From a virus: a DNA stretch of 64,000 nt. The position numbers and the translations under genes are program-made. This document shows positions 2,407 through 50,898 of the stretch, in pieces; within the stretch, counting starts at the first letter, position 1; each line of letters begins with the position of its first letter. A model generated the notes under the pieces. It was not told the DNA's origin. It made no database searches and saw nothing but the letters and a program-made list of their open reading frames with translations. Location of the stretch: IMG/VR virus record IMGVR_UViG_3300011115_000879, positions 1 through 64,000 of that record; one strand, 5' to 3'.

Positions 2407-2430
2407 GGCAAAATAGATTTTGTATATTTA
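2407..2430 (+). promoter_or_regulatory. Early/middle promoter motif copy
   Basis: GGCA-AAATAGATTTTG-TATATTTA ending 4 nt before the ATG at 2435. Confidence 0.65.
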
Positions 2431-2434
2431 AGTT

Positions 2435-3358
2435 ATGAAAAAACAACACACATTATGGATCGAGCGCTACAGATCCCAAACATTAGAACAATATATCGGA
2501 AACGATACTATTAAAGAACGCATTGCTGATTGTATTACCAACAACGATATTCCACATTTTATATTTAGTGGAACGGCGGGTACTGGTAAAACAACATTAG
2601 CAAAATTAATAGTAAATAATATCAAATGTGATTATCTATACTTAAATGCTAGTGACGAAAATGGTATTGATATCATTAGAGATAAAGTTAAAGGCTTTGC
2701 ATCATCAGCATCGTTTAATCCTCTTAAAGTGATTATATTAGATGAAGCAGATTTCCTTACACAACCAGCTCAAGCTGCACTTCGTAATATCATTGAAGAA
2801 TATTCAATTAATACACGTTTTATCTTAACATGTAATTATATTGAGCGTTTAATTGAACCATTACAATCTCGTTGCGAAATTAATATTCTAAAACCACCAA
2901 CTAAAGGTGGCGTAGCTAAACATATCTGTACTAACATATTAGATATTGAAGGTATTACTTATGATATTAAAGACGTAGCAGCTATCATTAATGAACTATA
3001 TCCTGATATTAGATCTGTAATTAAAGTATTGCAACAAAATATTAAAGATGGCAAATTAAAGATTGTAACTTTAAACGATAACTGGTGTAAGCAACTCATT
3101 CAAATACTAAATAAACGCGATAAGGATGCTTGGTTTCAAATTCGCCAATTAGTAGCAGATTCGCAAGTAGATGATTTCCAAATCGCTTATAGATATATGT
3201 TTGAGCATCTACCTGAATTTAGTTATGGTAATGATGCTAATCTATCAGTTATATTAGATGATTTTATTTGGAGATCGAGTGTAGTACCTGATAAAGAAAT
3301 TAACTTTGCAGCCGCAATAGCAAAAATATTAGAAACAACTAAAAAACAACTATTATAA
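2435..3358 (+). CDS. Clamp loader AAA+ subunit (T4 gp44/RFC-small-like)
   Basis: LWIERYR, Walker A GTAGTGKT, LNASDENG, Walker B ILDEAD, SRC motif. Confidence 0.92.
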   Translation: MKKQHTLWIERYRSQTLEQYIGNDTIKERIADCITNNDIPHFIFSGTAGTGKTTLAKLIVNNIKCDYLYLNASDENGIDIIRDKVKGFASSASFNPLKVIILDEADFLTQPAQAALRNIIEEYSINTRFILTCNYIERLIEPLQSRCEINILKPPTKGGVAKHICTNILDIEGITYDIKDVAAIINELYPDIRSVIKVLQQNIKDGKLKIVTLNDNWCKQLIQILNKRDKDAWFQIRQLVADSQVDDFQIAYRYMFEHLPEFSYGNDANLSVILDDFIWRSSVVPDKEINFAAAIAKILETTKKQLL

Positions 3359-20465: not shown

Positions 20466-20504
20466 TATTTATACATAAATAACAATAAATAAAAAATAGC
20501 ACAA

Positions 20505-23052: not shown

Positions 23053-23107
23053 TTTAGAAATGGCAAAATAAAAATCGTATATTCAATTATAAATAAAAAC
23101 AAAAACA

Positions 23108-33805: not shown

Positions 33806-33836
33806 AATGGCAAAATAACTTTTGTATATTTAGTGT

Positions 33837-34022
33837 ATGTTAAAAGCAATAATTAAATGGAATAGTGGTCACTTGGCTCTATTATGTTCAAGTTGTAGAA
33901 AAATTATTAAGGTTGGATATGAATTCACTGAAGAAGAATCTTTATTCGCTGGAGGTAAAGGTCATCTAGATCCACAACATTGTGATGAATGTATTAATAA
34001 ACTAAAACAATTAGAGTTATGA
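33837..34022 (+). CDS. Small Zn-binding protein
   Basis: CSSC...CDEC; promoter motif at 33809. Confidence 0.6.
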   Translation: MLKAIIKWNSGHLALLCSSCRKIIKVGYEFTEEESLFAGGKGHLDPQHCDECINKLKQLEL

Positions 34023-35034: not shown

Positions 35035-35223
35035 ATGAAAACAAATTTAAAAGCAGCTGGTATCACATTATTGATTTTATTAATAATTGTAGGATTTATA
35101 TATGGTTTACTATTCTATACAAGCATAATGGTTCCAATTGGGATGTGTATATCGGGAGCGGTTATTGTGGTATGTATCTTTAATATGGTAAAACTTACTT
35201 TACTTAATGATCGGCAAGATTAA
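35035..35223 (+). CDS. 2-TM small protein
   Basis: Two hydrophobic segments. Confidence 0.55.
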   Translation: MKTNLKAAGITLLILLIIVGFIYGLLFYTSIMVPIGMCISGAVIVVCIFNMVKLTLLNDRQD

Positions 35224-35239
35224 TTTTGTATATTCAATT

Positions 35240-35449
35240 ATGAAAAAAAGTAAAAAAGAACCACTTGAACGTAAATGGTTTATTGTTATGAATTCACAAT
35301 TAGAATATTTTGCTGGGTTATTATATGGTGGGCAAATAGTATGGTCTAGAGACTATGATGATGCTAAACCATTAGATTTAGAATCAAAATTCATTACTTT
35401 AAAGAGTATGAGTTATGGCGAAGAACTTATCTTAGATTACATAAAATAA
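35240..35449 (+). CDS. Hypothetical protein
   Basis: ATG 35240 directly after the promoter motif. Confidence 0.6.
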   Translation: MKKSKKEPLERKWFIVMNSQLEYFAGLLYGGQIVWSRDYDDAKPLDLESKFITLKSMSYGEELILDYIK

Positions 35450-35454
35450 AAGTT

Positions 35455-35667
35455 ATGACACCAGTTTATCCAAAAGAACATCCTGAACGTAGACAAGAAG
35501 TACTAAATAAGTTCTATAAGCAAGTTAGAGAAACAAGATGGGATACACCTGAAGAGAAACCTATCTCCCTTCGTGGTCGTAAGCCTAAAAAGATAGAATT
35601 ACCTGTAATCAATCAATTACCTCAAACTAAAAGTACTAAAATCAAAGATAGATATAATTGGTTATAA
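35455..35667 (+). CDS. Hypothetical protein with RGRKP (AT-hook-like) motif
   Basis: SLRGRKPKK. Confidence 0.6.
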   Translation: MTPVYPKEHPERRQEVLNKFYKQVRETRWDTPEEKPISLRGRKPKKIELPVINQLPQTKSTKIKDRYNWL

Positions 35668-35713
35668 AAGGCAAGACTAATTTTGTATATTCAATTAAAT
35701 AAAAAATAAAGCT

Positions 35714-35950
35714 ATGAATATTAACGTTGATATTGATATAGAGGATATGTTATATGAAATGTCTAAAAGGGAAAAACAGCAACTAGCAGATGATCTCTAT
35801 AACGATGGATATATACCTAAGCCATTTCAAAATGAAGCACATAGATACACAGACGATTTTAGTGATGCTTGTAGAAAACTAATAGGTCAAGCTTGGCGAT
35901 TAACTAGAGAAGAAGAAGAATATATTATTAACATATCAAAACGATTTTAA
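35714..35950 (+). CDS. Hypothetical protein
   Basis: Own promoter motif at 35670. Confidence 0.65.
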   Translation: MNINVDIDIEDMLYEMSKREKQQLADDLYNDGYIPKPFQNEAHRYTDDFSDACRKLIGQAWRLTREEEEYIINISKRF

Positions 35951-35951
35951 T

Positions 35952-36068
35952 ATGGGACAAGGTAAACGAAAGGATCAAATAGATTCAAGTGAACGAATAG
36001 CTGATATTTGTATTATAGTTTGTGGTGTATCACTACTTATAGCTATACTAATTAACTTATTAAAATAG
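35952..36068 (+). CDS. 38-aa membrane peptide
   Basis: MGQGKRKDQIDSSERIADICIIVCGVSLLIAILINLLK. Confidence 0.55.
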   Translation: MGQGKRKDQIDSSERIADICIIVCGVSLLIAILINLLK

Positions 36069-36108
36069 GCAAAGTAAAAATTGTATATTTATTTCAAATA
36101 AAAAAATT

Positions 36109-36315
36109 ATGACTACTAATAATAATAATAACTTACAATTGAAATGGGATTGTTTGATGATTGAAAGAATGGTTAATGATTTAGTGTTAAAAGGTATACA
36201 TAAGAATGAAGATTTAGTTGCTGCTGTAGATGAATTCTATCCACCAACTACTGAATTTGAAATGGAACACTACTCAGAAGCTATTATTTATGCTAAATTA
36301 TCATTATTAAATTAG
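36109..36315 (+). CDS. Hypothetical protein
   Basis: Own promoter motif at 36068. Confidence 0.6.
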   Translation: MTTNNNNNLQLKWDCLMIERMVNDLVLKGIHKNEDLVAAVDEFYPPTTEFEMEHYSEAIIYAKLSLLN

Positions 36316-36363
36316 GCAAAATAAAAATCGTACATTCACCTCGAACCAAAAATAAAATAAAAT

Positions 36364-36546
36364 ATGGCTATTCAAACGAAAGATCAAGCGCAAGGTAAAG
36401 TAGATAAGAAATTAGACAGAGTATTGAATAAGCCTAAAAAGATTGTTCCATTGATGGAACGTAATTTTAACGATTTAGCTACATTGGAAGAACAATTTGA
36501 GTGGTTAAAACGTAAGCAACGCCAAAAAGATAGGGAGGCAAAATAA
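36364..36546 (+). CDS. Hypothetical protein
   Basis: Flanked by two identical 39-bp promoter repeats. Confidence 0.65.
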   Translation: MAIQTKDQAQGKVDKKLDRVLNKPKKIVPLMERNFNDLATLEEQFEWLKRKQRQKDREAK

Positions 36547-36584
36547 AAATCGTACATTCACCTCGAACCAAAAAATAATAAGTT

Positions 36585-37376
36585 ATGTCAAACGAATTAA
36601 ATTCAACCGCAGTAATGTCTAACAACAGTTATTCATTAGATCAAATCAAGTCAATAGCTCCATCAGTGTTTACTGTTGATAAAGCTGCTCATTTAACGGA
36701 TAAGTATATCCAAACTCCAACATCCCGTGTTGTAGAGGATTTAATGGCTTTAGGATGGCAAGTAACTAAAGCACAAGAAGTTAAAGCACGTAAAGGTAAA
36801 GGATTCCAAAAACATATGGTTGTGTTTCGCAACCCAGATATTATGATTAAGGGTAAAGGTGGTGATGATTCATTCCCACAAATTATATTAACTAATAGTC
36901 ATGATGGTAAAGCAGCATTTAATTTTAGGGTAGGTATTTTCAGATTAATCTGCAGTAACGGTTTAGTTATTAGTGATGCTGATTTTAATAATGTATCTAT
37001 TCGTCATATTAATTATACATTTGAGACATTACAAACTAAAATTGGTGAAGTAATTACTAAATTACCTGGTTTAGTTGCTAAAATTAATTTATTCAAATCA
37101 ACTCAATTAAGTGAGACAGCAATGGCTGAATTTGCTATTAAAGCCGCTTCATTACGTACTAAACAAAGTACAAATGTAGTAGAATTATTAAGAGCAGAAC
37201 GTGACTTAGATAGAGGTAATGATCTATGGACTGTATTTAATCGTGTTCAAGAGAAAATAATTAGCGGTGGGTTTGGTTATGGTAGGAAAAATCGTAAGGC
37301 AAGGTCAATTAAAAACTTTCAACAAGATATTAAGTTGAATGAAGAATTATTTGAATTAGCCGAGACTTATCTATAG
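36585..37376 (+). CDS. DUF932/DUF945-family protein
   Basis: APSVF, KHMVVFR, LTNSHDG, GIFRLICSNGL, LWTVFNRVQE. Confidence 0.85.
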   Translation: MSNELNSTAVMSNNSYSLDQIKSIAPSVFTVDKAAHLTDKYIQTPTSRVVEDLMALGWQVTKAQEVKARKGKGFQKHMVVFRNPDIMIKGKGGDDSFPQIILTNSHDGKAAFNFRVGIFRLICSNGLVISDADFNNVSIRHINYTFETLQTKIGEVITKLPGLVAKINLFKSTQLSETAMAEFAIKAASLRTKQSTNVVELLRAERDLDRGNDLWTVFNRVQEKIISGGFGYGRKNRKARSIKNFQQDIKLNEELFELAETYL

Positions 37377-37382
37377 TAAAAT

Positions 37383-37416
37383 AAGGGGGATGGCAACGTC
37401 CCCCTTTTACATTTAA
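37383..37416 (+). terminator. Terminator hairpin overlapping the promoter motif
   Basis: AAGGGGGATG-GCAA-CGTCCCCCTT-TTACATTTA. Confidence 0.75.
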
Positions 37417-37433
37417 TCAAACAAAAATAAGTT

Positions 37434-37976
37434 ATGAAAAAAGTATTAGTAATTCATCCAAACGACAGTAGTACCGATTTTTTAAAACCGATATACGCTA
37501 ATATACCTAACGCTACTGTTATTAGAGGTGGGATGACTAGAGCTGATGTGGATCAAGAAATTATCAAGCATGATCGTATTATAATGTTAGGACATGGTTC
37601 ACCAGGTGGTTTATTTTCTATAGGTGAATTTGAAGGTAGTTATGGATTTATTATCAGTCATGGTACAGCAGATTTACTAAGAGATAAAGAATGTATATTC
37701 ATTTGGTGTAATGCAGATAAATTTGTTAAGGAACATAACCTAAAAGGTTTATATAGCGGGATGTTTATTAGCGAAGTTGGTGAAGCGTTTTATTGTGAAA
37801 CACCAGCATCACAAGAAGTAGTAACTGAATCGAATGATTATTTTGCTAATGAATTAGGTAAAGTAAGTAATTTAGATTTAAACGAAATACATAATTACAT
37901 CAAAACCAATTACGGTATATTAGCTGAGAGTAATGATGTAGCAAATTACAATAACAATAGAATATATTTAGTATGA
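37434..37976 (+). CDS. Hypothetical protein, possible caspase/gingipain-like (clan CD) fold
   Basis: RIIMLGHG and IFIWCNA spacing resembles a His-Cys dyad. Confidence 0.5.
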   Translation: MKKVLVIHPNDSSTDFLKPIYANIPNATVIRGGMTRADVDQEIIKHDRIIMLGHGSPGGLFSIGEFEGSYGFIISHGTADLLRDKECIFIWCNADKFVKEHNLKGLYSGMFISEVGEAFYCETPASQEVVTESNDYFANELGKVSNLDLNEIHNYIKTNYGILAESNDVANYNNNRIYLV

Positions 37977-38233
37977 TAATAACATTAATAGTTGTTTTAT
38001 TTGTAATAATTCTAGGAATGGGACGTCATATTAAGAAGATAACAGATCAATTAGAATTATTAGATAGAGAACAACATGATCAAAATAAAGAAATAGCAAT
38101 ATTAATGAAAAATCATTTAAGACATCAAGGAATGTTATTACAACATAGTGAAGTATTAATGTATTTAGCTGAACGAGATGAAACATTAAAGAAATATACT
38201 ATAAAATATTCAGGTATAGTAGGAGAAGCATAA
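37973..38233 (+). CDS. TM plus coiled-coil hypothetical protein
   Basis: N-terminal TM. Confidence 0.6.
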   Translation: MIITLIVVLFVIILGMGRHIKKITDQLELLDREQHDQNKEIAILMKNHLRHQGMLLQHSEVLMYLAERDETLKKYTIKYSGIVGEA

Positions 38234-38264
38234 TTTATCCATATTTATAAAAAACAAAAATCAT

Positions 38265-38435
38265 ATGGCATCAGCACAAACAGAAATGAAAGTAATTAGC
38301 GTATTATTAGAGGAAGCAATGGATAATGGATTAGAAGTAGAAGTTGTATATGCCGCCTTAAAGGCAATGAGAGAAGATGATGCTATTACACCAGCACAAG
38401 CGTTTCAGGTTGGTATGGATGAATGGGTTAAGTAA
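38265..38435 (+). CDS. 56-aa hypothetical protein (not in ORF track)
   Basis: MASAQTEMKVISVLLEEA...EWVK; ATATTTAT at 38241. Confidence 0.6.
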   Translation: MASAQTEMKVISVLLEEAMDNGLEVEVVYAALKAMREDDAITPAQAFQVGMDEWVK

Positions 38436-38518
38436 TCACATAAGCACTCAACATAAAAGATAAAGTGGCTAGGCAAAATTGCCTAGCTATCTTTATGTTA
38501 ACCAAAAAATAAAAAATT

Positions 38519-38710
38519 ATGAGTGTAAGATTAGTGCAAAAAGAAACAACGTACGAAGTAAATTTTAATGGTGATGAATATCAAGTCACAGTAATGGAAG
38601 ATAATATTAGTGTTGGATATACAGTTTATGATGTATTTGATGAGAATGGTGAGTTAGTAGAAGGTGATTTAGAAAGTGCAGTGATTAGTTATTTAGAAGA
38701 AAATAGTTAG
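38519..38710 (+). CDS. Acidic hypothetical protein
   Basis: Own hairpin-embedded promoter at 38472. Confidence 0.65.
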   Translation: MSVRLVQKETTYEVNFNGDEYQVTVMEDNISVGYTVYDVFDENGELVEGDLESAVISYLEENS

Positions 38711-38760
38711 GACGGCAAAATAAGAATCGTACATTCACGTTAACCAAAAAATAATAAGTT

Positions 38761-39591
38761 ATGAACCAAGAAAGTAAAAAAAGAGGTCGTCCGTCAAAAG
38801 TACAGAACGTTACCTATGTCCCGTCATTAATTGACTTTTCAAACATTACAAAGTTAAATGAACTTAACATTGATAAAAAGATGTTAGAAGTAATGAAAAG
38901 TGGTTTACCTATAGATGAGTTGTTATCTGAAGAAGGTGGTATACCATGTGCTTCAAATTACATGATGATCGGTGATCCAGGAGTAGGTAAAACTACAGTA
39001 TTATTAGATTTATTATCAGCAGTCCAAAACAAAGGTCGTAAATGTTTATTCATAAGCGGCGAAATGGGACGTAAACAAATGTTCAAATATACAGAACGAT
39101 TCAAGCAGTTCGGTATTATACAAACATTATTCATGGCTGATTATATGTCATATAACACTAAAGACACAATTGAACAAGTATTAAATATGGGATGGGATTG
39201 TGTGTTGATTGATAGTGCAGCTGAAATAATCGATGGTGTACGTGATGATAATGGATGGGATAGAAAAACAGCTGAGGCATGGTTCGTTGATATATGCATC
39301 AAGCATAATAAGGGTGAAAATGAAGGTACTAAATTTACATCATTCCTTGCCATCCAACAAGTAACTAAAGCAGGTGAATTTGTAGGTAGTAATAAATTAA
39401 AACATCTATTCGATGCTATGGGTGAAATGAGACGTCAATCCGAGAAAGAAGGCGGAGATACTTATATTACATTTAGTAAGAATAGAAACGGAAATGCAGG
39501 TATTAAATTCAATTATCAATTAAACAACGATTCAATATATTATGGTAAAGTGGTTAAAGAAGAAAATGAAGATGATAGTGAGGCAGAATAA
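38761..39591 (+). CDS. RadA/Sms-like RecA-fold ATPase with N-terminal AT-hook
   Basis: KKRGRPSK; GDPGVGKT; ISGE; LIDS; QVTKAGEFVG..LKHLFD; KNR. Confidence 0.8.
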   Translation: MNQESKKRGRPSKVQNVTYVPSLIDFSNITKLNELNIDKKMLEVMKSGLPIDELLSEEGGIPCASNYMMIGDPGVGKTTVLLDLLSAVQNKGRKCLFISGEMGRKQMFKYTERFKQFGIIQTLFMADYMSYNTKDTIEQVLNMGWDCVLIDSAAEIIDGVRDDNGWDRKTAEAWFVDICIKHNKGENEGTKFTSFLAIQQVTKAGEFVGSNKLKHLFDAMGEMRRQSEKEGGDTYITFSKNRNGNAGIKFNYQLNNDSIYYGKVVKEENEDDSEAE

Positions 39592-39628
39592 TAATCGTAC
39601 ATTCACGTTAACCAAAAAATATAAAAAC

Positions 39629-40450
39629 ATGAAAAAAGAATTCAAAGTAGGCGACAAAGTAGTAATTAGTAAAAAATCTAGATTCTATGGAGATCATTAT
39701 TCAAATCCAACAGATGTGGACGGCACAATCACTAAGATTAGAGATGATTATGAAGGTCCTTTTAATGTTTTAGATATTAAAGTAGAATGGGATAATGGAA
39801 TGAAAAATTCATACAGTGAAATTGATTTAGAATTGGCAAAACAACAGTCATACATTCACGATAACCAAAACGATAAAAATATGAATAAAGCATTTAAAGT
39901 AGGTGATAAAGTAATGATTGATAGTAGTTCCGAATACTATAGTGATAACGATACTTCAAATCCAAGAGATGTGGAAGGCACAATTACTGAAATTGAAGGT
40001 GAGGATTGGCTTGGTGGATTGGGTATTATTGTTAAATGGGATAACGGAAAAATAAATGGCTACAATAAAGTAGATTTAAAATTGGCAAAGAAAGAATCGT
40101 ATATTCATGATGAAGAAAAAATTAACCAACCATTAAAACCTAAAGTTATGATTAAAGCAATTACAATTACAGATTTAGATCAAATTAAAGCGTTATGCGA
40201 AGCTATTCCTGGTATTAAATCTCAAGTACAGGATATGTACCCTGAGTTATTTGAAGTACATAAAGCAGGTAATAGATATGTTGATGTGTATGGTACTGAA
40301 TTTATATTAGCAACTGAACAAGGTGCAGTAGCATTAGTTGATTTAGAAACAGGTAAAATAGGTAAAACAGTATATGTTGATGACATTAATGATGTTACAG
40401 AAGATGAAATGGAGTTAGTATATAATGACAAAGAGTATACTTTAGCTTAG
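39629..40450 (+). CDS. Fused protein: two tandem SH3/KOW-like repeats plus C-terminal domain, with internal in-frame starts at 39881 and 40148
   Basis: FKVGDKV..SNP.DV.GTIT.I..V.WDNG..N.Y...DL.LAK twice; each ATG follows a promoter motif. Confidence 0.75.
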   Translation: MKKEFKVGDKVVISKKSRFYGDHYSNPTDVDGTITKIRDDYEGPFNVLDIKVEWDNGMKNSYSEIDLELAKQQSYIHDNQNDKNMNKAFKVGDKVMIDSSSEYYSDNDTSNPRDVEGTITEIEGEDWLGGLGIIVKWDNGKINGYNKVDLKLAKKESYIHDEEKINQPLKPKVMIKAITITDLDQIKALCEAIPGIKSQVQDMYPELFEVHKAGNRYVDVYGTEFILATEQGAVALVDLETGKIGKTVYVDDINDVTEDEMELVYNDKEYTLA

Positions 40451-40530
40451 ATATATTATTGGTTAGGTGGGTGCAGAAATGCGTTCGCCTATCTTTATGC
40501 TTGGCACAACTAAAATCGTATATTCACGTT

Positions 40531-40980
40531 ATGGAATTAGAAAAACGAATAGAGCAATACACACCTGTAAAATATAATCCTTATTATTGGTGGCGTCGTT
40601 TCAAACAACGAGAAACAAAACATCCTTATACAATTCTACAAACCAGAATTGAACATGGTGATTTCGAAGTAAGTGATTACCATTGGTGGATGATGTGGGA
40701 AGATAAATTAGAGCAAGACGCTATATCTAAAGAACGTAACGTAGATAAACAACATGAGTTGAGAGGATTATATGGTGAACGTAAACGACGATTAGCAACT
40801 GACTTTGAAAAAGACGAAGCAAAGATTAAATCAGAAATGTATAAAGCATTTAGAATAGAGTTTAGATTAAACGAAACAGAACTAGAAGATAAAATGATTA
40901 AATTCGACGGAACATTAAGTGAATTTTATTATGAATTAAAAAGTAAGCAACAAAATAAGATAGTATCACTCACGCGCTAG
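40531..40980 (+). CDS. Hypothetical protein
   Basis: YNPYYWWRRF; start moved to ATG 40531 after the promoter at 40503. Confidence 0.65.
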   Translation: MELEKRIEQYTPVKYNPYYWWRRFKQRETKHPYTILQTRIEHGDFEVSDYHWWMMWEDKLEQDAISKERNVDKQHELRGLYGERKRRLATDFEKDEAKIKSEMYKAFRIEFRLNETELEDKMIKFDGTLSEFYYELKSKQQNKIVSLTR

Positions 40981-41017
40981 GCAAGACTACGTATATACAT
41001 TCATTCAAAATTAAGTT

Positions 41018-41098
41018 ATGATAATAGCATTAGTAGTATTATTGATCGTTGTAATTGTCAAGTATATTATATTTGAAATTAAAAATCCGGGAATTTAG
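41018..41098 (+). CDS. 26-aa single-TM peptide
   Basis: MIIALVVLLIVVIVKYIIFEIKNPGI between two promoter motifs. Confidence 0.55.
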   Translation: MIIALVVLLIVVIVKYIIFEIKNPGI

Positions 41099-41142
41099 GC
41101 AAAGTAAATTCATTACATTTAATCAACCAAAACGATAAAAGT

Positions 41143-41352
41143 ATGTATTTAATCAAATTAACACAAGTATCTAAGGCGTTTGTTATTAAAGATACTAATA
41201 CTCGAAGAGAGTATACAGTAACATGGCGTAACTATACACCTAATCCATGGTTTATTGAAGATGAATATGAAGTAGAAATAGATCAGGAAACGGCATTAGG
41301 TGAAGATTTAATAGTGTTAGTACAAGACCAATTTGATGATTGGGCAAAGTAA
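41143..41352 (+). CDS. Hypothetical protein
   Basis: Own promoter at 41098; stop codon inside the next motif. Confidence 0.65.
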   Translation: MYLIKLTQVSKAFVIKDTNTRREYTVTWRNYTPNPWFIEDEYEVEIDQETALGEDLIVLVQDQFDDWAK

Positions 41353-41389
41353 TAGTCATATATTCACATTAACGAAATAAAATAATAGT

Positions 41390-41635
41390 ATGGGTAAGAA
41401 GAAGATGAATAATATAATAACTCAGGACGAAACGAATGATTTACTTCAGCGGGTGAGTGACCTGGAATATATGACAACAACATTGATTAGGGATAATATT
41501 GAGTTGGCTCAATTAAGTAGTGCGATGAAATGCTTGGTTGGCATGTATGAATGTGATATTATTGAGCTGCAAGATGCGCGTTTTTTTGCGCGTTTAAAGC
41601 GCTTTTTTGCGCCGCTTTTTGGTGGTATTAAGTAG
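41390..41635 (+). CDS. Hypothetical protein
   Basis: Own promoter at 41343. Confidence 0.55.
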   Translation: MGKKKMNNIITQDETNDLLQRVSDLEYMTTTLIRDNIELAQLSSAMKCLVGMYECDIIELQDARFFARLKRFFAPLFGGIK

Positions 41636-42057
41636 TGTTTTTGTATCGCAAGGGTGACGAACAATTGTTATGTGTGTATAATTGGATTTTGTGTTAAGGT
41701 ATGTTGTACGTTGTGTATGTGGAATGTTCGTTATGTGGGTGATGTGGCGTGTTGTGGCAGGTACATTTTTAGCCTTGCCTCTCCAAACACTTTTTTAAAG
41801 CAAAAGATATATACGATTTTTTTAGCACAATTTTGTACGTACATTCACTGAGGTAATAAGTTCTTATATTTATCGACGTACAACAGCATTATTTTGTTAT
41901 AAGGAACCGGCCTCGCCACAAGTTGAACGTAACGCTAATAATACTCAGTACACCACATATTTTTTTTGCAAAACTGTTACATAGGTAACGGCTTTCCTAC
42001 TGCTTGAATTGGCAAGATTTTGTTACTACATTCACCACGAACCAAAAATTAAGTGTT

Positions 42058-42702
42058 ATGAGAATTATTGATAAAGATTTTATTGTGGGTGGACATAAAG
42101 TAGGTGTTTACCAAGCGTACGTAGATATCGACCCTAATTTTGTACCAATGGAGCCGGGTGTACGTGTTTTACCAGCAGCTTTTTTTTCACAGAAGGATTT
42201 TTTTACACTCAAACGCCGCTACTTACCCGGTGATAAACCAACGTTCCCACAAGGTGGCTATGAGGTGTTCGGATCGGGAGGTGAGGTTCGCAGCTACGAT
42301 CTAGACGCCGTCATTTTGTATCCAGAAACACGCGCTCAGAAGAAGATCATCGACGCAATGGCTCCAGCTGACCCGGATGCTCCAACTCGTGGGCGTAAGG
42401 CTTCAAGCACACCGAAAGAGATAAAGATAACAAGCGGAAGACGTGGGCGCCCATCACTCAGTCAAGAAGATAAAGCCGCAAAGGAAGAAGCCGCTGCGGT
42501 TAAGGCTTCAAAGTCGGGAGGTAAGCGAGGAAGGCCGGCGCGTGAAGGTGGTCCGAAACCAATGAAGGAAGCAACAGGCGGTAAACGTGGACGCCCTAGA
42601 ATGACCGAGGCAGTTATCGCCCTTAAAGTGGCGGATAAGGCGCTTCGAGCGAGCAAGTCCGGCGGTAAGCGAGGTAGACCAGCAAGTACAAAACGTAAGT
42701 AA
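42058..42702 (+). CDS. Multi-AT-hook DNA-binding protein
   Basis: RRGRP once and KRGRP three times in a basic Ala/Lys-rich tail; start moved to ATG 42058. Confidence 0.75.
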   Translation: MRIIDKDFIVGGHKVGVYQAYVDIDPNFVPMEPGVRVLPAAFFSQKDFFTLKRRYLPGDKPTFPQGGYEVFGSGGEVRSYDLDAVILYPETRAQKKIIDAMAPADPDAPTRGRKASSTPKEIKITSGRRGRPSLSQEDKAAKEEAAAVKASKSGGKRGRPAREGGPKPMKEATGGKRGRPRMTEAVIALKVADKALRASKSGGKRGRPASTKRK

Positions 42703-42707
42703 CAATT

Positions 42708-42731
42708 AGCGCTCGTAAGAGCGCTTTTTTT
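42708..42731 (+). terminator. Intrinsic terminator
   Basis: AGCGCTC-GTAA-GAGCGCT followed by a T run. Confidence 0.85.
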
Positions 42732-42788
42732 ATGCTCGTGTTTGTCACAACTACTGTTGTACATTCATGTTAACCAAAAATTAAGGTT

Positions 42789-42980
42789 ATGATTTACAAA
42801 TTATGCATTTCGAAAAACAGAGTACAGTACCTAAAACAACAACTAGGTGATAATATTTTTGTCACTGATGAGGTTAGAGAAGATAACCTAGCTAGTGTGG
42901 AAGTAACCATCAACGATGACATGGACGCACTGAGTTTGTTCCATGCTGGAGTAATGGTTGGAATGAACGGCTCAGTATAA
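42789..42980 (+). CDS. Hypothetical protein
   Basis: Own promoter at 42744. Confidence 0.65.
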   Translation: MIYKLCISKNRVQYLKQQLGDNIFVTDEVREDNLASVEVTINDDMDALSLFHAGVMVGMNGSV

Positions 42981-43047
42981 ATAAATTAGGGCGGGGCAAA
43001 ATAAATGTTGTACATTCACATCACACAAATAATTAAAAATTAAGGTT

Positions 43048-43371
43048 ATGAGCAAGAAAAAAACAGTAGTAGCACCAGTAGAAACAATCGTAGTTAACAG
43101 TGTAAAAAGAGGCCGCCCAACGCTAGAAGGATCAGCGCGCCAAGCTAAATTAGCAGCACGTGCGGAGCGAGTTGCAGCGGGTGGATCAGTTGAGCGTGGG
43201 CGCCCGAGTAATCCAACGAGTGCTCGTCAAACTCGTCTAGCGGCTAGAGCAGCTAGGCTCGCGAGCGGAGTTGAGGTCAGAGCCGGCCGTCCAAAAGGTA
43301 CAGGTAAAACGGTGGAGGTAGAGGTGAGTGTGGAGCCGGTAGTTGAGGTGGGTGTTGGGGTTGAAGCCTAA
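43048..43371 (+). CDS. AT-hook repeat protein
   Basis: KRGRP, ERGRP, RAGRP separated by duplicated SARQ..LAARA helices. Confidence 0.72.
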   Translation: MSKKKTVVAPVETIVVNSVKRGRPTLEGSARQAKLAARAERVAAGGSVERGRPSNPTSARQTRLAARAARLASGVEVRAGRPKGTGKTVEVEVSVEPVVEVGVGVEA

Positions 43372-43424
43372 CACCCGGGCACAGCCCGCTTCGTACATTC
43401 ACATCGAACCAAAAATTAAAAATT

Positions 43425-43580
43425 ATGTACAGTTTAGATTGTTCTTTTTACACAGCGGAATTTACATGTATCGGTGATTTAGTAACTCACGTTATGCTTT
43501 TAGGTATGGATCCGAATTATGAGATCACTAGAAACGGAAAAGGTATTGGTGAGCAAGCAGCTGATTATCTTCAGTTTTAG
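43425..43580 (+). CDS. 51-aa hypothetical protein (not in ORF track)
   Basis: MYSLDCSFY..GMDPNYEITRNG; own promoter at 43378. Confidence 0.65.
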   Translation: MYSLDCSFYTAEFTCIGDLVTHVMLLGMDPNYEITRNGKGIGEQAADYLQF

Positions 43581-43627
43581 GCACAGTTTTTTTTGTACAT
43601 TCACGTTAACCAAAAAATATAAAGTAT

Positions 43628-43966
43628 ATGAAAGTATCAATTGAGCAAGCAGTAGTAAAAGTAAATGAGTGTATGTCTTCTGTTTTTACCAAGAATGATG
43701 TACTGAATTTGTTACAGAGTATTGAAATGAAAAAGGAAAATCTTGTGACTAAGGAGATGTTAGTGACTTTTGTTACTGACTATGTTGAAACACAAGTTGA
43801 GCGGTTAGATGCTGGGGATATTTTAGATCTTAGTACAGCTGAGTTTGATTTGAATGGTTGTGAGTTAAGTTTAGAAAGTGTTGATATTGACACAAGAGAT
43901 TTCACTAGAAACATTTTAGGAGAGATTGACGAAGCAGTTGATACTTTCTTGAATTACGATCTATAG
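43628..43966 (+). CDS. Acidic hypothetical protein
   Basis: Own promoter at 43580. Confidence 0.65.
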   Translation: MKVSIEQAVVKVNECMSSVFTKNDVLNLLQSIEMKKENLVTKEMLVTFVTDYVETQVERLDAGDILDLSTAEFDLNGCELSLESVDIDTRDFTRNILGEIDEAVDTFLNYDL

Positions 43967-44031
43967 ATAACTTAGAGCGGGGCTCGTCAGAGTCCCGTTC
44001 TTATATTTAATCAAACCAAAAACAATTAGTT

Positions 44032-44223
44032 ATGAATGAGTACGCTTACAACCAGTTATTATCTTTGTTACAACAAGCAGCTGCGATAGCAGAGGAGAAC
44101 AAGGACAATGTTACCAATTTTGATCTCGAGGATCTGGGGCTGTCGCTAGAAGGGATCATCCAGGAGATCGAGGACCTAGGAACATTTGTGGGTGAGGGTG
44201 ATGATGAGGAGTACGATAACTAG
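44032..44223 (+). CDS. Very acidic small protein
   Basis: Own hairpin-embedded promoter at 43986. Confidence 0.6.
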   Translation: MNEYAYNQLLSLLQQAAAIAEENKDNVTNFDLEDLGLSLEGIIQEIEDLGTFVGEGDDEEYDN

Positions 44224-44232
44224 GGGGATAAA

Positions 44233-44304
44233 GCCGCGTTGGTCAAGAGGTTAAGACGCCTCCCTTTCACGGAGGAATCACGGGTTCGAGTCCCGTACGT
44301 GGTA
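44233..44304 (+). tRNA. tRNA-Glu(TTC)
   Basis: CCTCC-CTTTCAC-GGAGG; ACGGG-TTCGAGT-CCCGT. Confidence 0.95.
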
Positions 44305-44361
44305 CAAGTTTTGTTTGGCACAATCAATTTTATACATTCACATTAACCAAAAATTAAGACA

Positions 44362-44574
44362 ATGGAAAAATTATCAAATGCAATCGAAATGTTTTTGTTC
44401 GACATGATCCCATCATTTTTGTATGGTGAGACAATTAGTGGAGTACCGATGAGTCAGGTGTCCAGGGGCTTCAACACCACTCACCCGCCAGTCCAGCTAA
44501 GTGAATTTGAATGGATACAGGAGTTTAGAGTGGGTTCGCTCCACAGAGTTGAGCAACGGGTTTTTTTGGGATAA
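44362..44574 (+). CDS. Hypothetical protein
   Basis: Own promoter at 44317. Confidence 0.6.
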   Translation: MEKLSNAIEMFLFDMIPSFLYGETISGVPMSQVSRGFNTTHPPVQLSEFEWIQEFRVGSLHRVEQRVFLG

Positions 44575-44621
44575 GGCAACGCTTTTTTTGTACATTTATT
44601 ACGAACCAAAAACATTAAATT

Positions 44622-45050
44622 ATGTCTACAAGATCATTAATCGGAAAACAAAACGCAGACAAAACAGTAACGTTTATTTATTGCCACCATGATGGCTACC
44701 CTAGTGGGGTGGGTGATACGCTCATCGAGTCTTACTCCACACCAGAGCAGGTGGATGGTTTACTCGCACTGGGGGATCTGAGTGTACTAGGGAGTGAGCT
44801 GGGTGAGCAACAGGATTTTAATAAACACACCCGTGATTGGTGTTTAGCGTACGGAAGGGATAGGGGTGAGACGGGTACTGAGGCTCAAACAATCGATCAA
44901 GAGATGTACGTGCGTGAGAATTTGAGGGGTGAGGAGTATAAGTATATTTATTCACTAAGCAAGAACTGGGTTTGTTATGGAAATGATGATGATGAGGACG
45001 ATGAGGAGTTCACCATCAAGTATCCAACAACAGAATCCAGTACAACATAA
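44622..45050 (+). CDS. Conserved phage protein (MSTRS..IYCHHDGYP..AYGRDRGE type)
   Basis: Motifs as named; own promoter at 44575. Confidence 0.75.
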   Translation: MSTRSLIGKQNADKTVTFIYCHHDGYPSGVGDTLIESYSTPEQVDGLLALGDLSVLGSELGEQQDFNKHTRDWCLAYGRDRGETGTEAQTIDQEMYVRENLRGEEYKYIYSLSKNWVCYGNDDDEDDEEFTIKYPTTESSTT

Positions 45051-45078
45051 GTTCATACTTTAATTTTAATGGTTAACC

Positions 45079-45110
45079 GGGCCGGAGTTTCTACTCCAGG
45101 CCCTCTCTTT
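45079..45110 (+). terminator. Hairpin/terminator after the inverted leader copy
   Basis: GGGCCGGAGT-TTCT-ACTCCAGGCCC-TCTCTTT. Confidence 0.65.
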
Positions 45111-45165
45111 ATGTTTGTAAGGCAGAATTAATTATGTACATTCACGTTAACCAAAAATTAAAAAT

Positions 45166-45390
45166 ATGATTGTTAAAATTTATCATTACGATTGTTCTTC
45201 AAATGAATTATTAAATGTAGATGTTATTGAGTGTAAAACACAAGAAGAATGTGAGTTAGAGATTATAAAACATCACTACCAAATTGATTATGACAATTGT
45301 AATACGGATTTAAGTGAAGAAGAGTATATTGAGAAATATAAAGTTAGTGACTTACAGTTTTATGAGAACTATGATTATGAAATTTGTTAG
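45166..45390 (+). CDS. Acidic hypothetical protein
   Basis: Own promoter at 45121. Confidence 0.6.
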   Translation: MIVKIYHYDCSSNELLNVDVIECKTQEECELEIIKHHYQIDYDNCNTDLSEEEYIEKYKVSDLQFYENYDYEIC

Positions 45391-45435
45391 TCAGAATTAG
45401 TTATGTATATTCACGTTAACCAAAAATTATTAGTT

Positions 45436-45630
45436 ATGAAAAAGTATTTAGTTGTTTCGTCTGAAAATGGTAATGATTTTTACATTGTAAATGATTTAAA
45501 AGAATTGATTGAAGAAATGTATGAGTTTGAATTAGTACAAAACGGAGAAACGTTTGAAAGTGTGAGTGAAAAATTATATAGATTCTATCAAGTGTTTGAA
45601 ATTGATGGTGAAATTAAAGTATTAAATTAA
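45436..45630 (+). CDS. Hypothetical protein
   Basis: Start moved to ATG 45436 after the promoter at 45390. Confidence 0.6.
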   Translation: MKKYLVVSSENGNDFYIVNDLKELIEEMYEFELVQNGETFESVSEKLYRFYQVFEIDGEIKVLN

Positions 45631-45683
45631 ACGTGGGTAGTCAGAAATGACTACCTATATTTATTCAAACCAAAAATTAAACC

Positions 45684-45845
45684 ATGAAGCAAGAAAAAGA
45701 TTACGCGTTCCAAGTAGTAGTATTCCTAGTATTATTAGTGATAGCAACAACCAGCTGTAGCCGCTATAGAGCAGTAGGATCAGATGGTAGGTGTATGTTT
45801 AAAAAACAAACCAATTATCAAATGACTAGGATAATTCGATTATAA
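45684..45845 (+). CDS. 53-aa putative lipoprotein (not in ORF track)
   Basis: Hydrophobic stretch then TTS-C; own promoter at 45640. Confidence 0.55.
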   Translation: MKQEKDYAFQVVVFLVLLVIATTSCSRYRAVGSDGRCMFKKQTNYQMTRIIRL

Positions 45846-45903
45846 AGCCAGTTGGACGTCAAAACTAGCAGCGTACATTCACATCGAACCAAAAATTAAT
45901 GAT

Positions 45904-46074
45904 ATGGCAAACATGAGCTACTGCAGATTCGAAAACACATACAACGACTTAAAGGACTGCCTTGAACACATTAATGATGAATGTGAAAATGAACGTGATG
46001 AGCGTTACAGACTCAGAATGATTGAGCTATTAGCACACGTACAAGATTCAATCGATTCAGATTATATCGATTAA
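45904..46074 (+). CDS. 56-aa phage protein (NMSYCRFENT type)
   Basis: MANMSYCRFENTYNDLKDC; own promoter at 45858. Confidence 0.7.
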   Translation: MANMSYCRFENTYNDLKDCLEHINDECENERDERYRLRMIELLAHVQDSIDSDYID

Positions 46075-46132
46075 ATAATCAGGGCTAGGCAAAACCAGCA
46101 GCGTACATTCACGTTAACCAAATAATTAGAAC

Positions 46133-46219
46133 ATGAACGAATTAAAGATTAAAATTACAGGCGTTACAATGATGTTAGCCTCAACAGCGTATTTAATAGT
46201 TTATATGCTCAATAATTAA
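46133..46219 (+). CDS. 28-aa TM peptide
   Basis: MNELKIKITGVTMMLASTAYLIVYMLNN; own promoter at 46088. Confidence 0.5.
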   Translation: MNELKIKITGVTMMLASTAYLIVYMLNN

Positions 46220-46276
46220 CAGGGCGGGGCAGAACAATAATCGTACATTTACATCAACCAAAAAAATATAAAGTAT

Positions 46277-46432
46277 ATGAAACAGTTAATCGCTTACAAA
46301 CGCTTCACAATTAAAGTAGTATCTGGATTTATGTTAGGCTGTATAGTCCTGGATGAAGTAATTGGAATAATGATTGGACCAATCCTCATTGAAATTGACT
46401 TCCCCAAACGCGAATCAAGTAATACAATGTAA
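46277..46432 (+). CDS. 51-aa hydrophobic protein
   Basis: Own promoter at 46228. Confidence 0.55.
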   Translation: MKQLIAYKRFTIKVVSGFMLGCIVLDEVIGIMIGPILIEIDFPKRESSNTM

Positions 46433-46488
46433 TCGGGGCTAGTCAGAATAATAAACATACATTTACATCGAACCAAAAATTGAGTATT

Positions 46489-46701
46489 ATGAAATTATTA
46501 AGTGGAATTATCAGTGTAATATTAGGATTCATGTCGTTATTCATCATGTTCGTTAAGGCGAAAACGGATGTAGAAATGGGAGTGGGATTTGGAGTGTTAC
46601 TAGCAGCAATCATCTTTATGTGCTTTATGATCATGGAAGAACAGAAGCAAGAAGTAGAGCGCCTGCGTGGAGTAATACTGAAGAGTAAGGGTATAATCTA
46701 A
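46489..46701 (+). CDS. 2-TM protein
   Basis: ATG 46489 after the promoter at 46442. Confidence 0.6.
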   Translation: MKLLSGIISVILGFMSLFIMFVKAKTDVEMGVGFGVLLAAIIFMCFMIMEEQKQEVERLRGVILKSKGII

Positions 46702-46721
46702 TCCACAGTCGATAGGCGGAT

Positions 46722-46758
46722 AAGTAAGGTGAGCGAGAAATCGCTCGCCATCTTACTT
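46722..46758 (+). terminator. Strong hairpin/terminator
   Basis: AAGTAAGGTGAGCGA-GAAA-TCGCTCGCCATCTTACTT. Confidence 0.7.
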
Positions 46759-46793
46759 GGATACTGGGCTCCGGGGCCGTATATTTACTCCAC

Positions 46794-47113
46794 GATCACC
46801 AACGTTAGTCCTCCATCCACACTGTATTCTTAACGCCCGCTTGGACACTACGTTTGGTGATCTTCCTTATCCTTCATATATTTATGAATGTTAAGAATAT
46901 AGTGCGGAAATAAAGACTCCACTCACATTCCCCAACATCAAACCAAGTACACAACCAGCTGAAAGTGCTGGGAGTTCCCCTAGCGGTGGCGGTAGCTAGG
47001 ATCAGAGCTGAATTCACATTGATGAATTAGCCGGGTTAAAATAAGCACGTGACAACGTTCCACGGTTTATCAGGCCCCGGCGGAACGGCTTCCTGTTAGA
47101 GATACGAGCGGAA
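46794..47113 (+). ncRNA. Candidate structured non-coding element
   Basis: Preceded by TTG-N20-TATATTTA; two interleaved ~18-bp stems plus five further hairpins; no credible ORF. Confidence 0.5.
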
Positions 47114-47142
47114 ATATAAATACAATAACCCCAACCCACGTT

Positions 47143-47361
47143 ATGAATAATAAGCTCAAAAAATCACCATCACCGCTCCGTCTCCACAAATATACTCCAC
47201 CCGAACAAGCACTCATTAATTCCCTATACACCAACGGGCATCTTAAACCCGCAATGATGGAAGTATGGGACCAATTAAAAGCCGGTAATGAGGTTATCCG
47301 CCGCAATCAGCTCAACTTCCACTCACACATAGAACGAGTAATAAAGAACCAGGTAAAATAA
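47143..47361 (+). CDS. Hypothetical protein
   Basis: GTTATG start. Confidence 0.5.
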   Translation: MNNKLKKSPSPLRLHKYTPPEQALINSLYTNGHLKPAMMEVWDQLKAGNEVIRRNQLNFHSHIERVIKNQVK

Positions 47362-47398
47362 AAATTAACCGTCAGAATAATAAGCGTATATTCACGGC

Positions 47399-47632
47399 AT
47401 GAAAAATAAGAACATGACACCAGCAGTAGAAAAAGCGAATGACTTAATCGATGATTACTATAACATGTTAATGGATAATATAGACGATGAGTTCATTAGA
47501 CGATTAGTAGCTATACGGTGTGCATTAAAGGCAGTAGATGAAATAATAAACACGCTCACCAATTCATGGTGCGTGATATCAGATAAGGAAAACTGGGACG
47601 AGGTAAAACAACAATTAGAAAACAGCTATTAA
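47399..47632 (+). CDS. Hypothetical protein, MTP.EKA..AVDEII..W.EVK family
   Basis: Motif shared with 28186 and others; promoter at 47371. Confidence 0.65.
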   Translation: MKNKNMTPAVEKANDLIDDYYNMLMDNIDDEFIRRLVAIRCALKAVDEIINTLTNSWCVISDKENWDEVKQQLENSY

Positions 47633-47642
47633 ACCAACCAAT

Positions 47643-47849
47643 ATGAACTGGATAGAAGTAACAAAGCACTCAGACATCCCAAGTATAATCTACACCGATA
47701 GAATAAAAATACTAATTGAAGACGTTAACGGGTTCATAGGAGTGGGATACTGGAACTCATATGACTGGGTATTAGACACCTATCACCATGATATTGATGG
47801 TGAAATACGCTTCTATAAGATTAAACGATACGCACTAATAGAATTATAA
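47643..47849 (+). CDS. Hypothetical protein
   Basis: MNWIEV.. small phage domain. Confidence 0.6.
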   Translation: MNWIEVTKHSDIPSIIYTDRIKILIEDVNGFIGVGYWNSYDWVLDTYHHDIDGEIRFYKIKRYALIEL

Positions 47850-47867
47850 ACCATTAAACCAACCAAC

Positions 47868-48116
47868 ATGGAAAGAATAAACACAGCACCCACACCCACG
47901 TTTAAAGTAAATGACCGAGTCCAATTCTACACCCAATACAGCGAGCGAGGAAGTGCTCCAACAACAAGTACCATCGAGTATGGAATCATAGAGAAGATAA
48001 ACACCATCACAGCGGAAGTAAGAACACGAGACGGTAAATGGAAACTACGGAGGGGTGAAATGACCCACTACACCGATCCATTTATCGGGTGGGTGGATGA
48101 GGAACCCAGTAAGTAA
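47868..48116 (+). CDS. Hypothetical SH3/KOW-like protein
   Basis: FKVNDRVQF..GIIEKIN..AEV. Confidence 0.55.
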   Translation: MERINTAPTPTFKVNDRVQFYTQYSERGSAPTTSTIEYGIIEKINTITAEVRTRDGKWKLRRGEMTHYTDPFIGWVDEEPSK

Positions 48117-48471
48117 CTAGACGCCCAGCCTATAGATCCGAGGAGCGTGAGCCTTAGAGCTCGCGCTTCCTCTATTGAGATCGAGCCGATAGCGGTTGCG
48201 TGCGGCCCGATAGCGGGGTGGGTGCGGAACGGCCCCACGCTAATCGCGGTACATCGATGGGGCGTGTGCGGCGCGACAAAAGGTATGGGTATTCTCAACA
48301 CACACACGATCTTTAACTATCGACAGTATATACGCATATCCCCATAAACGAACCCCAAATTCCGAAATAACCCTTTCACCCCAAATTCACAAAATCCCAA
48401 CTCTAACTTTTAACAAAATTTTACGTGTCGGCAAGATATATACCGTATATTTATCACATAATACCAAATAA

Positions 48472-50232: not shown

Positions 50233-50365
50233 GGATGTCAGAATTTTCTCCACTAACTTAATATTACAAGCGGTTTGAATAAAATGTTTGAGAGAAGAAA
50301 GGAAGAAGAGAGAAAATAAATAATGGAAACATAAAGAATCGTATATTTATATATAAACATATATT

Positions 50366-50566
50366 ATGAGATATAAAAACAACGTCTTAGATAAACTACA
50401 AGCGACGGATACTGCTGTTAATCGTATTAAGATACAAGTAAATAGAAATGTAAGTCAAGATGAAATTCTTGAATCTATTGAAACATTAAAAGAAACATTA
50501 GAACAAATTAGAGAAATAATTTCCGTTGAACCGGATGATTTTGATCAACAATTTAGACCTCAATAA
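50366..50566 (+). CDS. Hypothetical protein
   Basis: Late motif at 50343. Confidence 0.65.
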   Translation: MRYKNNVLDKLQATDTAVNRIKIQVNRNVSQDEILESIETLKETLEQIREIISVEPDDFDQQFRPQ

Positions 50567-50572
50567 GAAAAT

Positions 50573-50848
50573 ATGCAAATAATGTTATGGGTAGTATTAG
50601 TACATATTATTGAAATAATTGGTATTGCTGGTTATTTAATAATTAGAAAAAATACTAAATTAGAAAAAGCATTAGTAAATCAACAACAATATATAGATGC
50701 TATTAGTATTGTTATTAACGATTCTAATACTGTCATTCAGGAATTAGATAATAGAGGTGCTTTTGAATCAGACGATGAAGTAGGTACATTCTTTAGGAAT
50801 ATAAAAGAAATTCAAACTATCTTAAATCAATTTAATAATAAAAATTAA
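50573..50848 (+). CDS. TM plus coiled-coil protein
   Basis: N-terminal TM; GAFESDDEVG. Confidence 0.65.
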   Translation: MQIMLWVVLVHIIEIIGIAGYLIIRKNTKLEKALVNQQQYIDAISIVINDSNTVIQELDNRGAFESDDEVGTFFRNIKEIQTILNQFNNKN

Positions 50849-50898
50849 TTTGGTTACGTTATTTCCTGTTATTATATTGTCAATAAACAATTAATAAT

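Follow-up and report, generated by a model that had tools for sequence, protein, structure and literature searches.

The first 64 kb of the 159,567-bp IMG/VR virus record IMGVR_UViG_3300011115_000879, hereafter called the window, contain a dense array of a two-box repeat, GKCA-N12-TAYATTYA (K is G or T; Y is C or T), which we designate class A and interpret as a family of predicted promoters. The best explanation, which we hold with slightly more confidence than doubt, is that these are clade-specific phage promoters used before replication by the host core RNA polymerase, with the upstream box read by an adaptor or activator that the phage itself would encode. Arrays of promoters in variable early regions are familiar, for instance from T4; what is unusual here is a clade-specific box at the spacing of T4 middle promoters in a phage of Bacteroidota. 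To our knowledge, almost nothing has been learned about the takeover of transcription by large virulent Bacteroidota phages.

The genome represented by this record is 94% complete and has a G+C content of 32%, with 217 of its 229 crude gene calls on the + strand. The phage GroEL protein shares 58% identity with its counterpart in Flavobacterium phage vB_FspM_immuto (Immutovirus, 160 kb; hereafter immuto) and 48% with those of the Bacteroides DAC phages. The window includes genes for thymidylate synthase, many glycosyltransferases, transfer RNAs (tRNAs) and baseplate proteins. The phage is a large, uncultured myovirus of the virulent type with a Bacteroidota host, and resembles Flavobacterium phages. 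A megablast search of the array against isolated phages gave no match. Five related IMG/VR contigs carry the motif, clustered likewise, with 9 to 32 copies per contig. For the comparison of lineages we used 80 further loci, retrieved by means of the sigma-like protein described below.

The strict motif was found 35 times in the window, always on the + strand (shuffled sequences: mean 0.31, largest 2). Over the whole genome we counted 37 forward and no reverse matches, with the two copies beyond the window at 135726 and 157579, and no match at all in the backwards-read control. When the spacer was allowed to vary from 6 to 23 nt on the + strand, 37 copies had a spacer of 12 nt, two had one of 11 nt, and every other length was empty; the nearly fixed spacer reported in a preliminary description of this DNA is thus reproduced (37 of 39 copies). 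The same description had counted 32 copies between 35213 and 47400, which we recovered as 30 strict copies and two with one mismatch (38472 and 41824). Its seven outlying copies were all found again, four of them strict (2407, 23062, 33809 and 48430) and three as near-variants (Table 1). An additional strict copy is located at 21889, 111 nt before the next open reading frame (ORF). The stretch of 39 identical bases reported for two neighbouring copies was seen at 36315 and 36537. Copies are intergenic and placed ahead of genes. The stop codon of the upstream gene overlaps the box in 9 of 37 copies, as TAA at +7/+8 (four copies) or TAG at -2 (five copies); the earlier wording that the motif often supplies upstream stops is fair, although these copies are a minority.

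To describe the anatomy of the element we built a position table from 125 copies of six related contigs, numbering the first T of TAYATTYA as -12. The upstream box consists of G-28, G/T-27, C-26 and A-25, continued by A/C, A, A/G and T-21. The spacer is then free in sequence up to T-15, C/T-14 and G-13, which precede the 3' box, T-12 A Y A T T C/T A-5. The box is followed by C-4, g, T and T, and the fifth base downstream, the predicted +1, is A in 108 of the 125 copies; a-c-C-A-A-A-A-A comes next. The conserved leader noticed previously corresponds to the consensus C-g-T-T-A-a-c-C-A-A-A-A-A over all 125 copies. The table contains no sequence information upstream of -28, including positions -36 to -31. 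A TTG upstream of some copies, also noticed previously, starts at -36 to -33 in 27 of the 125 (about 7 expected), the -33 element being absent from about 80%.

The position of start codons agrees with this predicted anatomy. ATG is found exactly at the predicted +1 in 5 of the 37 copies of this genome (P 0.0015) and in 11 of 125 overall (P 1.6e-4). It is never found at box offsets 6-9, and its main peak at offsets 20-24 corresponds to leaders of 16-20 nt. These leaders are A-rich, with the standard form AACCAAAAA, and are devoid of a Shine-Dalgarno sequence. Because the ATG of the first group coincides exactly with the expected start site, for which other explanations are hard to find, we read these genes as leaderless. 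One such copy, at 2407, precedes a gene whose AAA+ product resembles clamp loaders and has a Gp44 lid domain, and the class is expected to be active before replication because one of its members would drive this leaderless clamp-loader gene. Immediate-early and activator-dependent promoters are not distinguishable from sequence, so that the word "early" is not established for the class. In the relative L034, class A copies are located directly ahead of two tRNA-like sequences (L034:2404-2470 and L034:4788-4850); the promoter would therefore serve RNA genes too.

As had been proposed, the 3' box resembles the -7 element of Bacteroidota. In Flavobacterium johnsoniae this element is T-12 A-11 H H T-8 T-7 T-6 G-5, the start site lies 4-5 nt past it, and the -33 element is weak (PMC6847099). 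Compared with Bacteroidota sigma-A promoters (-33 TTTG / -7 TAnnTTTG), four positions (T-12, A-11, T-8, T-7) are retained in the phage box, and G is avoided at -10 and -9; the predicted start falls at the same 4-5 nt past the box, and the leaders are likewise A-rich without a Shine-Dalgarno sequence. The phage promoters differ by the A that is always present at -5, by C at -6 in 97 of 125 copies, by the lack of the -33 TTG in most copies and by the extra invariant box at -28 to -25.

The position of this extra box is that of the activator site in T4 middle promoters, where the MotA box lies 12±1 bp from the -12 TAtaaT -7 element (PMC2988021). GKCA ends 12 bp before the T at -12, whereas the distance expected for a standard -33/-35 element is about 20 bp for TTG or 17 bp for the hexamer. 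Both systems thus have a phage-specific upstream box in place of the -35/-33 element, at the same 12-bp spacing. In both, the promoters are numerous and, here by prediction, used before replication for replication genes, tRNAs and small genes; those of T4 also serve factors of the late switch. The two systems differ in the box itself (TGCTTtA in T4, GKCAmArT here), and the host here belongs to the Bacteroidota, with another primary sigma factor. The T4 middle promoter is a closer precedent for the promoter itself than the T4-type promoter early stem-loop (PeSL) cassette named in the preliminary description, which had missed it.

We propose the following mechanism. TAYATTYA at -12 to -5 would act as the -10/-7 element, with transcription starting at the A five bases downstream and the RNA beginning either with the A-rich leader AACCAAAAA (16-20 nt) or directly with AUG. 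GKCA(m)A(r)T at -28 to -21 would replace the normal -33 TTG element, in the geometry known from T4 middle promoters, at which MotA, a phage activator, takes the position of sigma region 4. The reader of GKCA would be a phage-encoded adaptor or activator, non-homologous to MotA/AsiA, and not region 4 of the host sigma-A in its standard position. The rigid spacing over a free spacer sequence points to a protein contact that is tied to the polymerase. The motif statistics, the geometry, its conservation and clade distribution, and the absence of a phage polymerase and of the motif from bacterial genomes are observations, from which we infer promoter activity, the start site, the identity of the reader and the order of expression. 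Pfam searches revealed neither an RNA polymerase beta subunit nor a sigma region 4 in the phage genome. A search of the genome for a T7-type polymerase also gave no match, but was uninformative since the positive control likewise matched nothing. As no RNA polymerase gene was found in the phage, the host core polymerase must be used, in agreement with the view that host RNA polymerase reads the array. With about 32 stacked promoters, mostly terminator-free, transcription would accumulate along the array and continue into a gene encoding a gp55-like sigma factor, which would probably turn on late promoters of the TATATTTAT type.

We compared this organization with that of related phages. The GKCA motif is absent from immuto. 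The immuto genome harbours the same block at the same genome position, with DUF932, many small genes, T5orf172, the sigma-like gene and baseplate genes. It resembles the array in its -7-like box, in having a promoter for each small gene and in a leader that is uniform and specific to the lineage. It differs in the promoters themselves: 23 copies display aGTTGC at -35, then TATATTTA, then the leader GGTATCAATAATTAAAAC, with TTG exactly 20 nt before the box. The immuto promoters have the standard Bacteroidota geometry; this array has not been published as such and is described here. Other lineages combine the same box with further upstream dialects, namely TTGGC at -35 (L099, L105), AAC(a/c)nAAT at -29 (L064) and TTYCC near -20 (L065). 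Leaders are uniform inside each lineage and differ between lineages. GKCA or GKCR at -28 is confined to one clade, and the GKCA form is monophyletic on the tree of the sigma-like protein.

The same motif was searched in bacterial genomes. In 301 sampled Bacteroidota genomes it occurs 0-16 times per genome, by eye like the backwards-read control, as compared to 37 times in the 0.16 Mb of the phage. A scan of 185,579 species genomes for the specific promoter form (promoter plus spacer) yielded six single matches, about the number expected by chance, and three of those genomes were checked further and showed no motif enrichment. The upstream box is phage-specific and clade-specific, and the earlier statement that GKCA lies outside the host consensus holds. 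Three other ways of reading the sequence were rejected. A sigma-54 promoter (TGGCAC-N5-TTGC) would have a -12 GC element, which is lacking, the nearest T-Y-G being 3 nt too far downstream. An ECF-type (extracytoplasmic function) reading, with GGCA as -35 and CGTA as -10, would leave a spacer of about 10 nt. Finally, GGCAAA viewed as an inverted form of the immuto TTGCC -33 box is no more than a post-hoc 5-mer match.

A second box, class B (TATATTTA then T-A; ATATTTAT motif), without GKCA, is located just ahead of many structural genes and of the operon 50366-51678. The last ORF of this operon (50899-51678, 259 residues) has weak matches to Sigma70_r2 and to PHROG sigma families, the Sigma70_r2 match being below the Pfam cut-off (18.7 bits). 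Its AlphaFold2 model (predicted local distance difference test score of 88) shows two helical domains joined by a linker of about 15 residues. Foldseek matches of the model are nearly all sigma factors, every one with an E value of 0.1 or more. When the N-terminal domain was re-aligned to PDB structures, the best match was T4 gp55 (7d7c_F; Z 10.5, root-mean-square deviation 5.9, 119 residues), followed by many sigma factors with Z of 8-10, such values being moderate for helical proteins. The C-terminal helix-turn-helix domain has a weak TrpR-like similarity. The protein is conserved in immuto (48% identity), and metagenomes clustered at 50% identity contain 1572 representatives of it. Its recognition helix, TPQITK..KKL, is nearly unchanged across lineages with differing upstream boxes. 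In its predicted model the protein shares the sigma-2-like fold with late sigma factors of the T4 gp55 type, and it is probably a late sigma that serves TATATTTAT-type boxes before structural genes, and not GKCA. It has no Pfam family and is annotated as hypothetical everywhere; further homologues are encoded by an uncultured phage of 484 kb and by Microcystis phage Mel-JY01.

Several observations weigh against promoters read through a phage adaptor. G-5 and T-6, near-invariant in the host, are changed to A in 125 of 125 copies and to C in 97 of 125, and host sigma-A may read the phage box poorly given these departures. No match to PF09158, PF09114 or PF09010 was obtained at E<=1 in the 94%-complete genome, which argues against a MotA/AsiA homologue, although unrelated proteins may do the same work, and no candidate for the adaptor was identified. 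The adaptor gene itself would need a host-readable promoter, and the genome has only a handful of host-type boxes; the possibly dual promoters at 35213 and 35670 could act as such host-readable starters. The host sigma may be an unusual one, and lineage-specific upstream boxes could reflect different hosts. Promoter activity and the start site, moreover, are deduced by sequence logic. A serious rival, to which we give a limited but real chance, is that unmodified host sigma-A reads these elements directly as immediate-early promoters, GKCA being an auxiliary contact or a hitchhiker on a duplicated unit. The matching immuto block has standard host-type -33/-7 promoters, F. johnsoniae promoters depend chiefly on the -7 element (PMC6847099), 27 of the 125 copies retain a TTG near -33, a perfect host box (TAATTTTG) is present in each of the two leading promoters of the array, and the genome offers almost no other host-like promoters for starting infection. 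However, neither GKCA nor the spacer length of 12 nt varies among the 125 copies although the spacer sequence itself is free, which points to selection on a protein contact and not to inheritance alone. Positions -28 to -25 are about 7 bp off the binding position of sigma region 4, the box lacks the host G-5 and mostly T-6, and the motif is unused in the 301 Bacteroidota genomes.

The sigma-like protein could itself read both boxes, its sigma-2 domain contacting TAYATTYA and its helix-turn-helix GKCA, the short linker accounting for the short spacer. This arrangement would suit a protein made of a gp55/sigma-2-like domain, a linker of about 15 residues and a helix-turn-helix domain, and all members of the phage family retain the sigma-2 domain as well as A-5 in the box. 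We regard it as unlikely: the recognition helix is near-identical in the GKCA, AACM and TTYCC lineages, and this constancy makes the protein an improbable reader of GKCA. Its gene, moreover, follows the array and is preceded by a late-type box, an arrangement in which it could not start its own expression unless the protein is injected; gp55-type phage sigmas serve late genes, whereas class A drives a replication gene. GKCA might alternatively be an operator through which a single phage repressor silences the array at the late switch. The site overlaps all promoters of one class, and is clade-specific as expected for the site of a phage-encoded binding protein; the host, besides, can initiate from a -7 box alone. 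We find this quite improbable, as a repressor would not require exact spacing, GKCA is a short sequence without palindromic symmetry, and the -7-like box departs from the host consensus, which suggests a need for some positive help. It is hardly credible, finally, that the repeat is not a promoter at all and acts as a processing or termination signal in RNA or as a pure recombination site. A few copies do overlap hairpins with GKCA in the loop, and repeats of up to 39 identical bases could aid recombination, but strong hairpins are found in just 3-4 of 37 copies. The constant distance between two DNA boxes whose spacer is free in sequence, a likeness to the -7 element, the 11 copies in which ATG coincides with the predicted start and the copies ahead of tRNA-like genes all speak for a promoter.

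The block of genes behind these putative promoters is very variable. Of the promoter-led genes, about half lack a homologue in the five related contigs. Gene order is retained among relatives in a core (36364-39591), whereas some other genes change order, and nucleotide identity is 72-83% where the sequences can be aligned at all. The preliminary description had proposed recombinable cassettes. The variability agrees with this, but breaks are only slightly commoner at promoters. By the alignment test, 78% of comparisons show a break at promoter-bearing junctions and 71% at the others; by the gene-order test the values are 80% and 73%. The p values of 0.11 and 0.04 come from non-independent counts and crude gene calls and carry little weight. 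Between G001 and G003, about half of the ends of alignment blocks fall from -20 to +55 of a promoter, although gene boundaries confound this measure. Clear single cases do occur, such as the replacement of one cassette between two promoters, and a homing-endonuclease-like insert lies where G001 has a promoter.

Terminator-like hairpins are over-represented in the region (20, as compared to 6.9 ± 2.6 expected), with about 7 adjoining the approximately 32 promoters. A strong hairpin overlaps the box in just 3-4 of 37 copies, the three striking ones having GKCA as hairpin loop or stem (37392, 43986 and 45640). Several genes of the block have no promoter of their own. The idea that each gene is its own unit is not supported by these numbers. 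What stands of the dense array of single-gene cassettes is the single promoter type, the shared leader and the small, mostly uncharacterised genes; the insulation does not. Because terminators are few and genes mostly not insulated, transcription should add up along the array. T4-type PeSL cassettes (PMC2839356, PMC4122927) share with the array a repeated promoter consensus that flanks small genes without relatives in a highly variable region, a gene content and order that vary between relatives, and, for some copies, combined terminator-promoters with G-run/C-run stems. They differ in that the stem-loop belongs here to a minority of copies (about 7 of 32 when terminators were scanned for, and 3-4 of 37 when overlap with the box is counted), that break points are not clearly concentrated at promoter junctions, and that the promoter is not of the standard host type. 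PeSL is therefore a suitable precedent for the setting and for a minority of copies, and not a definition of the array. The host-takeover role suggested for the region, drawn solely from gene size and position, is unproven.

One broader reading of these data, which we offer tentatively and consider possible without expecting it, is a system resembling sigma appropriation in Bacteroidota phages but unrelated to MotA/AsiA. A phage protein would redirect the host polymerase from the -33 element to the -28 box, and lineages would swap the upstream dialect (TTGC at -35, AACM at -29, GKCA at -28, TTYCC at about -20) on the same -7-like box. If so, promoter specificity would evolve as a lineage-private code in a very abundant family of uncultured phages. 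The 125 natural promoter variants have a fixed architecture, and the same genes under standard promoters in the cultured immuto provide a natural comparison. Should a phage factor read the upstream box, the T4 middle-promoter strategy would have a second, independent example, and Flavobacterium genetics would gain strong promoters, leaders and leaderless starts that are portable. Should host sigma read the box directly, the known range of promoter recognition in Bacteroidota would be widened.

Table 1. Putative promoters and associated predicted features in the window (coordinates are window positions; dG, free energy)
Feature	Position	Strand
Class A promoter with ATG at the predicted start; clamp-loader-like AAA+ gene 2435-3358	2407..2437	+
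Outlying class A copy ahead of a DUF4494 gene, beside the tRNA cluster	23062..23085	+
Near-variants of class A: 23329 (GGTA), 25873 (N11 spacer, leaderless), 31779 (box TATCTTTA)	23329, 25873, 31779	+
Class A promoter of leaderless gene 33837-34022	33809..33839	+
Class A promoter array: 31 strict and 2 near copies, about 40 small genes, variable block	35213..48453	+
First array promoter; spacer holds a perfect host-type -7 box, TAATTTTG, directly ahead of the phage box	35213..35236	+
Second array promoter, built like 35213 with TAATTTTG in the spacer	35670-35693	+
Promoter and leader, 39 nt identical to 36537-36575	36315..36353	+
Promoter and leader of the DUF932 gene (36585-37376); immuto counterpart TTG-N20-TATATTTA	36537..36575	+
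Combined terminator-promoter: 10-bp G/C stem, GGCA loop, T-run spacer, box; dG -18.3, z -5.0	37383..37415	+
One-mismatch member, box TATCTTTA, leader AACCAAAAA, within palindromic hairpin 38465-38490	38472..38495	+
Promoter and leader in frame inside ORF 39629-40450, between two related protein modules	39835..39858	+
Second promoter copy internal to ORF 39629-40450	40084-40107	+
Class A promoter of leaderless gene 40531-40980; terminator-like hairpin ahead at 40464-40491	40503..40533	+
One-mismatch member (AGCA)	41824..41847	+
Combined terminator-promoter: 12-bp stem, GTCA loop; dG -21.8, z -6.1	43974..44009	+
Combined hairpin-promoter, GTCA within the stem	45633..45663	+
Class A promoter of leaderless gene 47399-47632	47371..47401	+
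Final class A copy, from which read-through would extend to the sigma-like gene	48430..48453	+
Class B box, TATATTTA then TA, without GKCA, ahead of the sigma-like operon	50342..50349	+
Class B-like boxes, also before structural genes beyond the window	49597, 51684	
Two-domain sigma-like protein: gp55/sigma-2-like N-terminal domain, C-terminal helix-turn-helix	50899..51678	+

A few features of the region merit separate mention. ORF 39629-40450 comprises three modules, two of them related, each starting with M-x-K-x-F-K-V-G-D-K-V. A complete promoter and its leader are translated in frame between the two related modules (..LAKQQSYIHDNQNDKNM..), the usual stop GCA AAA TAA having become GCA AAA CAA. 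This ORF could be a fusion of cassettes, possibly also yielding nested shorter proteins from its internal promoters. The conserved 180-residue array protein encoded at 37434-37976 gave no lead in Pfam, PHROG or Atlas. A perfect palindrome around GGCAAAATTGCC (window 38465-38490) forms a terminator-like hairpin on both strands and is at the same time a degenerate copy of the promoter.

Outside the array, window positions 5993-21368 and 30516-31604 hold a long run of glycosyltransferase and sugar-modifying genes and a long thymidylate-synthase-like gene (362 residues). Genes for 7-deazaguanine DNA modification are present in the cultured relative immuto. Modification of DNA or of the virion could influence promoter reading.

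A lone tRNA-Glu (UUC) gene lies within the array (window 44233-44305), apart from the main tRNA cluster at 23.7-25.4 kb. The array is also interrupted by a stretch of about 440 nt (46700-47140) with no convincing + strand ORF, a higher G+C content and a reversed GC skew, which contains a terminator-like hairpin at 46728-46749. At the matching place, relatives have one promoter copy on the opposite strand, in a divergent pair (for example G004:512-576).

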